Assembly: GCA_016186325.1 (NCBI GenBank)
Contig: JACPLW010000002.1
Span: 1,485 to 65,484, forward strand
DNA from: Parcubacteria group bacterium
Lineage (GTDB): Bacteria > Patescibacteriota > Minisyncoccia > UBA10092
DNA length: 64,000 bases
Reading direction: 5' to 3'
Shown here: positions 6,395 to 61,828 of the stretch, one piece after another
How the letters are laid out: every line of letters starts with the position of its first letter
How positions within the stretch are numbered: position 1 is the first letter of the stretch
Position numbers and translations under genes: made by a program
Notes under the pieces: model-generated
Told to the model about the DNA's origin: nothing
Seen by the model: only the letters and a program-made list of their open reading frames with translations
Database searches by the model: none

Positions 6395-6425
6395 GGGGCG
6401 GCGAGACCGAGTGTCTCGCCGCCCC
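6395..6425 (-). terminator. intrinsic terminator of GC-rich gene 6453-7508
   Basis: GGGGCGGCGAGAC-CGAGT-GTCTCGCCGCCCC followed on the minus strand by CCAAATTTTTTC. Confidence 0.6.
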
Positions 6426-6452
6426 GCCGCCCCCGCCAATTGCGAAGGGTTA

Positions 6453-7508
6453 TTACTTCTTGCCGCGAGCGCGGTCGCGCTTCCAGTCGGAACTCTTATG
6501 AGTTCCGAACTCAGCGCCGAAGGTGCGCCGGTTCGCGGCGCCGCCTTCCAGCGAGCGCGCCTGGCTGACGCGCCCGGCGCTCTCCGCCTCACGCTTGACC
6601 ACGAGGCGAAGCCCCGCGACCGTATAGAACGTGAGAACTGCCCGCCGCTCCACCCAGTCAGGGTGGTCTTGCGGCAGATCCTTGCGGGCCCGGAAGTCCT
6701 CGAGGGCCTCCGAGCGGCACGTGCCGCAGCAGCGAATGCCGTAGGCGAGCGTCTTGCCCGCCTCCTCGATCTTGACCACTCCCGGAGGGATTTCTCCCGG
6801 AGGGATTTCCCACGGGAAGTTCTCCGCGTCGGCGCGGAGAAGCTCGCCGGCGACGATGTCGCCGCCGTCGCCCTTGCCGTGCTGACGGCGGTGAAGCTTG
6901 CCATCGTCTCCCCGCTCGAGGAGGAAACGCTGGGTCAGCTCCACCGGCTCGTTGTAACCGCGATGCCGCGGAGTGGCGCACGGCATCTTCTTGCCGGCCA
7001 CGAGCGGATCGGGATCCGGCTGCTCGGCGACCAGCTCCGCGATCGCCGCCTTCTCCGCGGCCAGCTCGGAAAGATAGTGCCTGAACATGGACCGGGTGAT
7101 CTCCACCCCGTCCTTGGCCTCGGCAGCAAACCGCTGCCGAATCCCACGGACCGTCGCCTGGCCCTTGTAGAGCCCGGCGTCCCAGTCCGCCTGCATCTCG
7201 CTGTCGAAGAGCAGCCGGTCGTCGTTGGCCGGCCTGCTGCTGCCGTCCTTCTCGGCCTTCTCGCGCTTGCCGCGCGAGATGATCTCGGCCGTCGCAGCCT
7301 CGATCTCAGCCACGGTCACGTCGGCCGGCATCCGCGGCTTGACCACCTCCGAGGCGGCCCACACCGCGAAACCGAGCGACCACCCCTGCTTCTCGGCGAT
7401 ACGCTTGAGCGCCTCGATGACGCCCTGCTGGCTGAACCGCTTCTTGTCATCCGCTGCTACAACTATCTTCCTGGGCTTGGCCATGATTGGCCTCCGTTGT
7501 CCCGCCAA
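6453..7508 (-). CDS. hypothetical protein (GC-rich island gene, no recognisable family)
   Basis: 351-aa ORF; SD ACGGAGG 7 nt before ATG; strongly GC-rich unlike its flanks; tandem 15-bp duplication encodes PGEIPPGEIP; own consensus promoter and terminator. Confidence 0.5.
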   Translation of the reverse strand: MAGQRRPIMAKPRKIVVAADDKKRFSQQGVIEALKRIAEKQGWSLGFAVWAASEVVKPRMPADVTVAEIEAATAEIISRGKREKAEKDGSSRPANDDRLLFDSEMQADWDAGLYKGQATVRGIRQRFAAEAKDGVEITRSMFRHYLSELAAEKAAIAELVAEQPDPDPLVAGKKMPCATPRHRGYNEPVELTQRFLLERGDDGKLHRRQHGKGDGGDIVAGELLRADAENFPWEIPPGEIPPGVVKIEEAGKTLAYGIRCCGTCRSEALEDFRARKDLPQDHPDWVERRAVLTFYTVAGLRLVVKREAESAGRVSQARSLEGGAANRRTFGAEFGTHKSSDWKRDRARGKK

Positions 7509-7594
7509 AGGCAGGGACTTTTGTATTGGTTGTCGCTCTTGAGGGCCGTTATTGGCCTCTTGAGCTTAAACCCTGTTTAGGAACTATTAACCAC

Positions 7595-7622
7595 ATTATA
7601 TCAAATATACAGAATATGTCAA
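7595..7622 (-). promoter_or_regulatory. consensus sigma70 promoter (TTGACA-16-TATAAT) driving GC-rich gene 6453-7508
   Basis: Minus strand reads TTGACAtattctgtatatttgaTATAAT. Confidence 0.6.
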
Positions 7623-7648
7623 GTACCTACTTATGCCGGCAGGTAGGC

Positions 7649-7677
7649 TTGACAATATAGCTAAAAAGGCGTACTAT
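7649..7677 (+). promoter_or_regulatory. sigma70-like promoter (TTGACA-17-TACTAT) for the NUDIX gene, divergent from the previous promoter
   Basis: TTGACAatatagctaaaaaggcgTACTAT; the two divergent -35 boxes sit in an inverted repeat TGTCAAGTACCTAC / GTAGGCTTGACA. Confidence 0.5.
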
Positions 7678-7799
7678 AAAAACAATCCGAGCACCTGCTT
7701 TCGCTCGTCGTCGGCGGATCGTGTTTCGCCGAAGCCGAGCTTCAGCGAGGCGAAGGCGGGGAAGATTCTTTGACAACAATAATAAACAAGGAAGAGGCG

Positions 7800-8531
7800 A
7801 TGGAAACACTGCCTAAAACGATGTCTTGTTTCGGAGTGATTATAGAACATAATCAAAGCCCGCCAAGAATTTATCTGGTCCATAATACCGCAGACCCTTT
7901 GGGGCCGAATGGCGAGGAAGGCAAGCCGACTGGCTGGGGACTTCCCGGCGGCGGCAGTTTGGATGGCGAAAGCCCTGATGAAACTGTTCGCCGAGAAGTG
8001 CTTGGCGAAGCCGGATTGGTTACCGAAATTGCGACACGAGGAAAAAATTCCGAATTCGGCGAAATCCTTTTTGAAGATAAACCGCTCATCAATAACAAAG
8101 TTTACATTTTTCATCTTAAAAGGATTGGCGAGGGATTTAGAAATATTGAGGAAACCGGCGAAACCGGAAGGGTTATGCTGGCAGATTTGGGAAGCATTCT
8201 AAAAATGCCCTTGGCTATTAAGAACATCCGTCATGAAGACGGAACAACGGAACAAATCAAAAACCCGGAAGGGATTTATTTTTCCGTCAGAGAAAGAATT
8301 TTCGGGGTACTGGATTATCTGGGTTATGATTTTTATAATCTCATTCCCGATCTTGATAAACTAATCAGTGAAATCAGCCGAAAGGAAGTCGGTAATTACA
8401 TTTACAACTTGCTTGCCGAGGTGATTGCAAAAAAGAATGAACTTTACGAGCGCCGGGCGCGGCGTCTGCGACCTGACGACGACGAGCTTTTGGAAAGATA
8501 CAGCGAGTGGGCCGTAAGGCAGGAGGGATGA
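7800..8531 (+). CDS. NUDIX hydrolase
   Basis: Nudix box GWGLPGGGSLDGESPDETVRREVLGEAGL; SD AAGGAAGAGG precedes ATG 7800 (the ORF track starts at TTG 7770). Confidence 0.8.
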   Translation: METLPKTMSCFGVIIEHNQSPPRIYLVHNTADPLGPNGEEGKPTGWGLPGGGSLDGESPDETVRREVLGEAGLVTEIATRGKNSEFGEILFEDKPLINNKVYIFHLKRIGEGFRNIEETGETGRVMLADLGSILKMPLAIKNIRHEDGTTEQIKNPEGIYFSVRERIFGVLDYLGYDFYNLIPDLDKLISEISRKEVGNYIYNLLAEVIAKKNELYERRARRLRPDDDELLERYSEWAVRQEG

Positions 8532-8533
8532 CA

Positions 8534-60318: not shown

Positions 60319-60370
60319 CGTTTATTTGGGGCCAAAGTTTTTTTTATTAATTATGACTTTGGGATTTTAA

Positions 60371-60450
60371 CCCCACCAAAATTTACTATTTCTCAACTAT
60401 TGATTCTCGGAATCAATAGTAAACTTTGGTGGGAAGGCGAGAGTCTCGGA
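60371..60450 (-). repeat. family-B module copy 4 (end of GC-rich island)
   Basis: Minus strand reads CCCACCAAAGTTTACTATTGATTCCGAGAATCAATAGT..AAATTTTGGTGGGG; a family-D palindrome sits inside. Confidence 0.55.
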
Positions 60451-60489
60451 CAACCGTTTTCACGATGTCCAGAGTTCTCGCCTCAGTGG

Positions 60490-60786
60490 TCAGCCAGCGA
60501 GTCCGATGGCCCTCGCCTGACTCCAGGTCATGTTGACCATGTTGACAGAGTAGTCGACACCACCGAACTTCTGGTGCAGGTTCGATAGAGCCTCTTCGAG
60601 GTCTTTGACCTCGTAGGGCTCATCGGTCCCGATCCTGACCTCGATGGCGTCATCGCCGACGGCCGAGTCCCTGATGACAAAGGCAACCGAAGCCACCTTC
60701 TTGCCACCAGAAACCAGCAGATACTGCTCTGACACGACGCTGTTATACGGAAACCTCGTCACACGCACGAGCACCAGCTGATCCAT
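60490..60786 (-). CDS. hypothetical protein (GC-rich island gene)
   Basis: 98 aa; SD AATGAGGAGAAG before ATG. Confidence 0.45.
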   Translation of the reverse strand: MDQLVLVRVTRFPYNSVVSEQYLLVSGGKKVASVAFVIRDSAVGDDAIEVRIGTDEPYEVKDLEEALSNLHQKFGGVDYSVNMVNMTWSQARAIGLAG

Positions 60787-60850
60787 GGCTTCTCCTCATT
60801 TGCCGCGCGTTCCGCGCGGCGGTATGTATTTTACAATTTCTGTCTCAAAG

Positions 60851-60919
60851 AACTTTTAGGCCTCCCCGCCAAAATTTTCAAATCCCTTTAAAAACTTTGG
60901 TAGGGTGGGGCACTCGAGA
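60851..60919 (-). repeat. family-B module copy 3
   Basis: Minus strand reads GGGGCGCTC..GAGTGCCCC hairpin then ACCCTACCAAAGTTT..AAATTTTGGCGGGG. Confidence 0.55.
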
Positions 60920-60958
60920 TGAGCGCCCCGAAAAGAGTTAGAGCAAGGACAAGAAGAC

Positions 60959-61057
60959 CTACCTCTTGGTCTTCTTGTCGGCCTCGGCGGCTTTCGCCGT
61001 CAAGGCCTCCTGGCGCGACTGGTACACCACGCCTCCTACGACATGGTACTTGGTCAT
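60959..61057 (-). CDS. 32-aa peptide ORF with strong SD
   Basis: SD AGAGGGAGGTGA 7 nt before ATG; MTKYHVVGGVVYQSRQEALTAKAAEADKKTKR. Confidence 0.3.
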   Translation of the reverse strand: MTKYHVVGGVVYQSRQEALTAKAAEADKKTKR

Positions 61058-61799
61058 CGCTGGCTCACCTCCCTCTTTCTCCCGGATTTTGTTATTAATG
61101 TGGGGGAAGATTAATCTCCCCGCTAAAGCCCATGGCTGGCTTTGCCTCGCCGAAGCCCCGCCGAGGCGGGACGAAGACGGGCTTTCTTTTAAAAAAAACA
61201 TGGGCTTTAGTGGAGAGGCGAGGGGGCGGCCGCGCCACTCTCGAGGTGATCGCCGGCATCCGTGCCGGTCGGTCCTCTTGCGCCTACCTCAAACCCCCTC
61301 GCCAGAGATGTGCGGGTATGCCTCCTTCATCGGGTTTGGCCTCACACGGGGGTCCGCCCCATGATCTATTGGCCGTTTCGCCCCGCAACTGCGGGGCTGT
61401 GCTCCGCCGAGCACCCGATTTCTCCGTCACCATGCCGCACGCATGGCGGGAGTTTCCCAGGTAGTGTCTGTAACAATGATCGCCGGCGGGCGGTCACTAT
61501 CACAGACCGCTATCGCCGCGACCTTAATCGCCGAGCGACCCTGGGATTCCGCCCTCGCACGGGGACGGAAGGAGGCCCTCTTACAGAGGATTGTGAGAAC
61601 AAGGGACACTGAAGGGATATAAACTTAATTAAATGATTGGAACGGAGGAGGTACAATTGCAATATGCTATTTATTACCTCGCATCCACTTGTTCCTTGCC
61701 CGCCGTAGCCTTGGCGAAGGCAGGCGCTGGCTAAAATCCCTTATTCACACGATCCTCTGTGAGAGATTTAAATTACTTAACAAGAACTATTATAATTAC

Positions 61800-61828
61800 A
61801 TTATATACCATAATTAAAATCTTGTCAA
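61800..61828 (-). promoter_or_regulatory. perfect consensus sigma70 promoter (TTGACA-17-TATAAT) heading a ~700-nt GC-rich leader
   Basis: Minus strand reads TTGACAagattttaattatggtaTATAAT. Confidence 0.65.

Follow-up and report, generated by a model that had tools for sequence, protein, structure and literature searches.

GC-rich promoter-bearing gene cassettes in a Parcubacteria chromosome and a possible link between their base composition and mRNA structure

Compositional islands are routinely taken for recent horizontal transfer. A 64,000-nt stretch of DNA from a Parcubacteria group bacterium (GenBank assembly GCA_016186325.1, contig JACPLW010000002.1, positions 1,485 to 65,484; the window) contains eight short GC-rich islands, numbered here as units 1 to 8, and raises the question of whether this explanation fits them. 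The typical layout is a consensus sigma70 promoter (usually with a TGn extended -10), a leader, a canonical Shine-Dalgarno sequence (SD), one to three small and mostly lineage-restricted open reading frames (ORFs), and an intrinsic terminator. The reading favoured here, at a probability of about 0.45, is that seven of the eight islands (all except unit 4, at 28366-29640) are autonomous accessory-gene cassettes native to Parcubacteria, with a GC-richness that would be tied to selected mRNA structure.

GC-rich transcription units in a natural locus

The mean G+C (GC) content of the window is 42.7%. Islands were called from 150-nt windows with a GC content of at least 55% (Table 1). The eight segments, of 0.35-1.25 kb and 52-65% GC each, are the same eight that a first-pass annotation of this DNA had listed. 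GC content at third codon positions (GC3) is 0.53-0.88 in island ORFs and 0.22-0.50 in backbone ORFs. The GC-richness spans the whole transcribed unit, including leaders and intercistronic RNA, and ends at the promoter and the terminator.

The exact pattern TTGACA-N16-18-TATAAT occurs eight times in the window, against 0.01 expected from dinucleotide-preserving shuffles, bearing out the first-pass view of a promoter excess far beyond chance. Six of these perfect promoters head islands. The annotation had tied its perfect promoters to compositionally foreign DNA and missed the other two, at 45262(+) and 61999(+), which head low-GC units. The weaker promoters that it had described for units 4 and 5 were confirmed. 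Promoters matching 11 of 12 consensus positions also precede backbone units, namely RNase Y (21831(-)), a TrmB gene (35640(-)) and tRNA-Pro (39407(+)), indicating that near-consensus promoters are native to the organism and not exclusive to GC-rich DNA. The strong SDs of the island ORFs and the terminators of all units, likewise reported at first pass, were read straight from the sequence; a terminator scanner found those of units 1 and 2. Hairpins of the CCCCGCAGTTGCGGGG type lie inside islands and also outside them, at 2770 and 27067. Since such hairpins and the perfect or 11/12 promoters are also found on low-GC and backbone DNA, the expression signals of the islands are native in style. 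The earlier remark that acquisition would not explain the perfect promoters was judged apt.

The backbone genes of the window encode FtsH, an RNase-J-like beta-CASP protein, S1, GyrA, the CCA-adding enzyme, RNase Y, a Mur ligase, HtrA, PNPase, UvrD and KsgA. Fifteen tRNA genes are scattered and mostly single, several with CNN anticodons (CGG, CGC, CCT). GyrA is 80-86% identical to that of metagenome-assembled genomes (MAGs) of Parcubacteria / Candidatus Azambacteria. The island proteins are on record as HYW79_* (e.g. HYW79_00460) in an NCBI 'Parcubacteria group bacterium' groundwater MAG, on a contig of 130,925 bp. The sharp compositional edges and textbook-perfect expression signals could suggest an engineered construct, contamination or a chimeric assembly, and the first-pass annotation had allowed for both non-natural construction and chimeric junctions. 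However, island-flank junctions were recovered again in independent Logan assemblies of five separate SRA runs (SRR12113420, -22, -24, -383, -384), orthologous islands are present in MAGs from other studies and other sites, CCCCGCAGTTGCGGGG-style terminator hairpins are used by backbone genes too, and MAGs of other Parcubacteria show the phenomenon as well. Because the proteins are in an NCBI MAG, and the junctions and the frameshift of the RluA-like gene of unit 7 were re-assembled in independent runs, synthetic origin and chimeric assembly are excluded, and an artefact of any kind carries practically no weight. The window DNA is natural and correctly assembled.

Codon usage, mRNA folding and the conservation of unit 1

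Island ORFs use AAG at 93%, GAG at 86% and CAG at 84%, with codons ending in S (G or C) throughout. AAA stands at 79% in housekeeping and in low-GC backbone genes alike, and the housekeeping genes use GAA at 76% and CAA at 65%; compared with low-GC backbone genes, they prefer mainly C-ending and a few G-ending codons. Translational selection was rejected as an unlikely source of the high GC3, as the housekeeping genes show no shift to AAG, GAG, CAG, GTS, CTS or ATC. The island pattern is a general shift to G and C, not an extension of housekeeping codon preference. GC content is raised at first and second codon positions (GC1, GC2) as well, and the non-coding leaders and spacers inside units are GC-rich, indicating that the bias acts on the transcribed nucleotide sequence.

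Predicted folding was compared with that of shuffled controls. Against dinucleotide shuffles, island transcripts had a mean z-score of -2.9 and backbone genes one of -0.6 (p = 5e-10). Synonymous-codon shuffles, which keep both the protein and its codon usage, gave means of -2.0 for island coding regions and -0.2 for backbone genes (p = 7e-5). Island messages are more structured than either kind of shuffle allows. In six orthologues of unit 1 the codon-shuffle z was -1.75 to -2.56, and genes of a 56% GC genome gave only -0.5, indicating that the structure excess is no by-product of GC content. Per 200 nt, folding of the sense strand was favoured over that of the antisense strand by about 10 kcal (z of -4.1 versus -2.7, p = 3e-4), which points to RNA and not to DNA palindromes. 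Unrelated GC-rich cassette ORFs of other Parcubacteria gave a z of -1.4 versus -0.37 (p = 0.0015).

The protein of unit 1 has invariant C/H/C/C residues and is 343 aa long; an earlier 351-aa reading (6453-7508) had the wrong start codon. The gene was present in all relatives examined. It lies between NUDIX and RNase-J-like genes in the window and in five relatives (L001, L002, L008, L081, L082); on a short contig, L173, it again adjoins the NUDIX gene, and in all relatives with readable sequence on the other side its neighbour there is the RNase-J-like gene. The family forms only seven clusters among 5.8 billion, and those that could be located are all in this slot. In four lineages compared by codon, GC3 was 0.81-0.88 for the unit 1 gene and 0.30-0.45 for the adjacent NUDIX gene. 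About one third of the identical residues are encoded by different codons, and the proportion of synonymous differences (pS) is 0.42-0.50. The ratio of nonsynonymous to synonymous divergence (dN/dS) is about 0.3, indicating that the ORF is a real protein-coding gene. Because GC3 stays at 0.81-0.88 despite this synonymous turnover, the high GC of unit 1 is a maintained, gene-specific equilibrium without the fading signature of an import, and no amelioration toward host composition was found among the orthologues. The first-pass idea that recent import from a high-GC source explains the composition is thus not supported for the conserved units, unit 1 being syntenic in seven genomes with an unchanged GC3 of about 0.85.

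The promoter and the approximately 100-nt leader of unit 1 are also conserved, the leader more so than the coding region (L173 and the five relatives named above). It contains a near-invariant hairpin, TCAAGAGGCCAATAACGGCCCTCAAGAG, with CAAGAG repeats on both sides, and a second stem just 5' of the SD, the sequence of which varies among genomes while the pairing potential is kept. RNAalifold identified two pairs with compensatory changes, both within the first stem. The leader may be a new cis-regulatory RNA motif. In sequence similarity, unit 1 of the window is nearest to L173 (75%) and L082 (69%) and distant from L001 (49%) and L002 (39%). The NUDIX gene and the gene next to it are instead nearest to those of L001 and L002, and this conflict between the gene tree and its flanks suggests allele exchange inside a fixed slot.

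The other units, their slots and their counterparts in other Parcubacteria

Comparison with related genomes indicates that units have been gained, lost or relocated, or have had their ORF replaced, in fixed intergenic slots. The unit 2 slot of L001 keeps both terminators, T1 and T2, with an unrelated ORF and without ORF b, which in the window sits exactly between the two; a Logan contig (L163) covers the CCA gene and both unit 2 ORFs. A TrmB gene (34841-35602) is divergent from unit 5; L083, L094 and L099 have neither, and in them htrA abuts tRNA-His. Unit 6, whose protein has the conserved tail GSGTAPRxTKKKGGGAGQ, is at the same site in L083 and cleanly missing, promoter and terminator included, in L099 and L094; in L001 and L095 the homologues sit at another locus, adjoining AhpC. 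The first-pass proposal of a family of self-contained expression cassettes, acquired or mobile, therefore stands in part: most units are self-contained and several are movable or exchangeable (the unit 6 indel, the absence of TrmB with unit 5, the unit 2 slot), but the ORFs are unrelated to one another and form no single family. Nine island ORFs found by exact look-up, including those of units 2, 5, 6 and 8, fall in 90%-identity clusters with at most two members, and searches of the orphan ORFs against Pfam, PHROGs and NCBIfam gave nothing beyond two marginal PHROG matches. The claim that the products lack homologues does not hold for all of them, the 194-aa membrane protein of unit 3 being an exception.

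Table 1. Coordinates of the GC-rich units and of the two low-GC units with perfect promoters (positions in the window; GC segments called from 150-nt windows)
Feature	Span	Strand	Promoter	Segment with GC >=55%	ORFs and other parts
Unit 1	6395-7622	-	7595-7622, perfect, extended -10	6323-7569 (65%)	leader 7485-7588; ORF 6453-7484 (343 aa); terminator 6395-6425
Unit 2	14186-15138	-	15110-15138, perfect	14167-15108 (62%)	ORF a 14780-15034 (84 aa, Cys-rich); ORF b 14224-14715 (163 aa); terminators T1 14753-14772, T2 14185-14215
Unit 3	23131-24013	-	23965-23994, perfect, spacer 18	23270-23713	membrane protein 23246-23830 (194 aa); terminator ~23175-23205
Unit 4	28366-29640	-	29549-29577, 9/12 (TTGACT-17-TATTTT)	28550-29476	sigma54-type activator 28420-29502
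Unit 5	35733-37107	+	35733-35761, 11/12 (TTGACA-17-TATACT)	35966-36978	ORFs 35890-36180 (96 aa), 36475-36717 (80 aa), 36748-36882 (44 aa); two-hairpin modules 36381-36425(+), 37059-37100(+)
Unit 6	37695-38045	+	37695-37723, perfect	37715-38110	basic protein 37762-37968 (68 aa); terminator ends ~38045
Unit 7	40207-41194	+	40207-40235, perfect	40403-41213	leader ~220 nt; RluA-family pseudouridine synthase 40457-40822 / 40747-41133; terminator ~41155-41194
Unit 8	60290-61828	-	61800-61828, perfect	60416-61637	leader 61058-61795(-); ORFs 60959-61057 (32 aa), 60490-60786 (98 aa); two-hairpin modules 60901 to ~60857(-), 60430 to ~60366(-); terminator 60290-60312
Low-GC unit	45262-45642	+	45262-45290, perfect		coiled-coil ORF 45340-45642 (100 aa, 40% GC)
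Low-GC unit	61999-62190	+	61999-62027, perfect		~150-nt transcript; SD; 24-codon ORF MLFEQTRQKPKYFLRLVAHCREGH; weak terminator

A wider survey took in the window and 80 gyrA-centred loci from other Parcubacteria (81 loci). At 17 of 39 perfect promoters the downstream GC content was at least 0.10 above background, and the upstream GC content was so at none of the 39; about 3% of random windows reach this excess in a second locus set. A perfect promoter lies within 250 nt of 26% of high-GC ORFs, compared with 1% of backbone ORFs. Perfect promoters occur at a density of 1 per 8 kb in the window, about 1 per 40 kb in the gyrA loci and about 1 per 114 kb in htrA loci. More distant Parcubacteria carry GC-rich genes with consensus promoters a few kb upstream of gyrA, without detectable similarity to unit 1. 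Across different Parcubacteria, GC-rich genes in this region (L001 13873-14342; also in L016, L021, L024 and L032) have no detectable similarity to each other, all follow consensus promoters, and many encode CxxC...CxxC zinc-ribbon proteins; they could be one very fast-evolving family or mark a true replacement slot. Nothing relevant to GC-rich promoter-bearing islands in Parcubacteria or the candidate phyla radiation (CPR) was found in the literature.

The units are of mixed origin, and units 3 and 4 have relatives elsewhere. Unit 3 is flanked by a 16-nt direct repeat, AGCRGGACATTGCACG (23131-23146 and 23998-24013, 15/16 identical), that runs from just upstream of the -35 to just past the terminator and has the look of an insertion scar or of paired binding sites. 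The unit lies inside a 4.3-kb accessory stretch between RNase Y and a 260-aa gene, which are 0.3-1.6 kb apart in relatives. Its product is one of a family of ~190-aa membrane proteins that has 2126 representative clusters (best non-self identity 46%), and import is plausible since a 45% identical homologue has native composition in a 56% GC genome. At a distance of 1.2 kb lies a gene for an HTH_23 transposase-like protein (25163-25834). The unit 4 protein has an AAA+ domain and a Fis helix-turn-helix and lacks a receiver domain; its nearest non-self homologue is 61% identical, followed by many at about 40%. The first-pass annotation had counted this island among the eight, but its GC content is only mildly raised (GC3 0.53), it overlaps the start of the downstream AhpC-family (peroxiredoxin) gene, and its codon-shuffle z of +0.5 to -2.1 represents no structure excess. 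Unit 4 is an ordinary regulator of old horizontal origin, outside the cassette class. No rpoN was seen in the window beside this receiver-less sigma54-type activator of a small-genome Parcubacterium.

Units 5 and 8 share a two-hairpin module: a GC stem comes first, then CCCACCAAAGTTT..loop..AAATTTTGGTGGG, in which the transcribed strand forms a G-U pair. Its four copies are confined to these units, and the second copy in unit 5 is followed by a T-run. The module was not found in 2.1 Mb of related loci, and IMG/VR gave only chance matches within unrelated genes. A common mobile element carrying both units with their neighbouring TrmB genes was considered and is unsupported, the two TrmB proteins being only 36% identical over the N-terminal half. 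The small, mostly orphan ORFs of these units, each followed by an imperfect inverted repeat, and their exchangeable content recall integron cassettes. The attC sites of integrons have an R''/R' core, RYYYAAC / GTTRRRY, which the unit 5 and 8 hairpins lack. In further contrast to promoterless integron ORFs in an array beside intI, Pc and attI, each cassette has a consensus promoter of its own, the cassettes are scattered with no such platform adjoining them, and the sole tyrosine recombinase of the window (45700-46596) adjoins no island. Unit 5 gave the codon-shuffle z values -5.6 and -4.4. The leader of unit 8, about 740 nt without a convincing ORF and GC-rich over its last 560 nt or so, has a fold z of -10.2 against dinucleotide shuffles and may be an unrecognised structured RNA. 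In unit 7 the RluA-family gene is frameshifted near a CTGTCTGTCTC run (~40712), identically in three independent Logan contigs, and the unit retains a structure excess (z of -2.6); it could be a pseudogene, a programmed frameshift or a case of function at the RNA level.

Of the low-GC units with perfect promoters, that at 45262 is just downstream of two tRNA-Val genes and converges on the tyrosine recombinase gene (Phage_integrase and SAM-like domains); the region 45262-46596 could be a small integrated element or simply xerC/D. The unit at 61999 lies between unit 8 and a TrmB gene (62182-62919), to which it is antisense-adjacent, and may encode a small RNA or a micropeptide. Genes for RNA decay are dense in the window: the RNase-J-like beta-CASP protein (4871-6208), RNase Y (20234-21757), an NYN-domain protein (46994-47533) and PNPase (47562-49748). 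ARAGORN also called a tRNA-Ile with anticodon TAT (2565-2637, minus strand); this tRNA is uncommon in bacteria, in which AUA is usually read by a lysidine-modified CAT tRNA.

Explanations for the GC-rich cassettes

Ordinary horizontal gene transfer (HGT) would have brought in ORFs from higher-GC donors, which persisted only if a strong native promoter evolved in front of them or was picked up, and which are not yet ameliorated. Plain HGT is likely for units 3 and 4 and perhaps applies to unit 7. Most units are strain-specific and missing in close relatives, their atypical codon pattern is like that of a high-GC genome, unit 3 combines a widespread family with flanking repeats and a homologue at native composition, and for units 4 and 7 there are clear homologues in genomes not of the CPR type. 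The cassettes also share with HGT genomic islets an atypical GC content, a patchy distribution and, for some, a position beside tRNA genes. As an account of the whole set HGT is nevertheless unlikely. The cassettes differ from such islets in being mostly of one to three genes, without an integrase of their own in any island, with native-style promoters and terminators and, in unit 1, without amelioration. No close donor was found for any unit: beyond the best identities of 46% (unit 3) and 61% (unit 4) the others are singleton clusters, and neither the homologues of units 1, 3 and 4 nor the nine ORFs looked up exactly had closer matches in a distant donor than in relatives. Unit 1 holds its GC3 of about 0.85 across lineages in which synonymous sites have largely turned over, and transfer alone predicts neither folding beyond codon-shuffled controls nor a sense-strand bias. 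[quoted passage not shown] It is improbable, however, since GC-richness tracks the boundaries of transcription units, the recombining flank genes are not enriched, and an excess of sense-strand RNA pairing is not predicted. The shift in GC3 from about 0.4 to about 0.86 is also much larger than the effects reported for bacterial gBGC.

The closest known concept is the phage moron of the HK97/HK022 type, defined by its own promoter, its own terminator and a deviant GC content ('The moron comes of age', PMC3594210). All three features are found in the cassettes, which like morons are independent transcription units and in many cases small accessory genes without a known function. A further moron trait, presence as extra DNA where relatives have adjacent genes, was found for unit 6, for TrmB with unit 5 and for unit 2 ORF b, and not for unit 1. 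The islands could accordingly have been left in the chromosome by a GC-rich phage or plasmid of Parcubacteria, as its remnants or morons, their small orphan zinc-ribbon or basic genes resembling phage early or moron genes; the tyrosine recombinase, the HTH_23 transposase-like protein and the private hairpin element of units 5 and 8 would fit. The defining phage context is missing, though, and this origin is held to be improbable as well. The flanks are housekeeping genes of a bacterial chromosome (ftsH, RNase-J-like, gyrA, cca, RNase Y, murC-like, htrA, tRNAs), no phage structural or replication genes are present in the window, PHROG matches are negligible, and IMG/VR yielded only chance matches and no relatives of units 1 or 3. 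Unlike morons, at least one cassette is conserved in its slot across species; its deviant GC content is maintained over evolutionary time and paired with excess mRNA structure, and is therefore no sign of recent transfer. The strongly folding, GC-rich transcripts with strong promoters in an AT-rich background also resemble the structured non-coding RNAs of AT-rich genomes, for which GC-richness is a signal in finding large examples. That the islands are chiefly such RNA genes with incidental ORFs would account for the negative folding z, the 740-nt leader of unit 8 and the perfect promoter of the unit 7 pseudogene, but is quite improbable. The cassettes are predicted translated mRNAs with GC3 > GC1 > GC2 periodicity, canonical SD and ATG, conserved residue blocks and purifying selection on the protein; a search of the window against Rfam 15 returned only tRNAs at gathering score, with no island match at E <= 1 beyond noise, and no fold conserved by covariation was found.

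The reading of the islands as native cassettes with selected mRNA structure has several points against it. A single conserved fold over the unit 1 mRNA was rejected for lack of net covariation, the RNAalifold covariation term over five orthologues being +28.8 kcal, where positive values are penalising; any selection would therefore act on general foldedness and not on specific helices, and this is an unusual claim. The minimum free energy z-scores are computational and could reflect some uncontrolled sequence feature. Promoter strength and GC content are separable, as two perfect-promoter units are low in GC, and units 3 and 7, with recognisable homologues elsewhere, may simply be imports. The terms 'highly expressed' and 'long-lived' are read from sequence signals.

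Under the native-cassette reading, GC-richness would be the compositional side of selection for densely base-paired mRNA. With RNase Y, an RNase-J-like nuclease and PNPase all encoded by the cell, such messages may be long-lived or decay-resistant, and maximal promoter and SD strength together with a stable mRNA would yield small accessory proteins in very large or persistent amounts; many of these are predicted to be Zn-ribbon-like or basic. Exchange would probably take place by homologous recombination in conserved flanks, promoters or terminators. A more specific proposal, put forward tentatively, is that the cassettes belong to an undescribed 'armoured-message' class of the Parcubacteria chromosome, in which leader, coding sequence and spacers are selected for dense structure and hence have high GC, and which have consensus promoters, occupy fixed slots and are exchanged between lineages.

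If that proposal is true, mRNA foldedness and not codon adaptation would be the chief determinant of composition for a set of accessory genes, and the messages could resist decay, persist under stress or serve a second function as RNA. At least one island is an old resident that actively maintains its GC3 of about 0.85 while the genome has 40-44% GC, and its synonymous sites are arranged for more RNA pairing. Confirmation would make it a clear example, in a bacterium, of mRNA structure determining the base composition of an individual gene, would call for caution over composition-based HGT calls in CPR genomes, and would point to a group of orphan proteins, probably expressed at very high levels, in organisms of largely unknown biology. 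The cassettes also represent ready-made strong promoters, leaders and terminators for Patescibacteria genetic tools.

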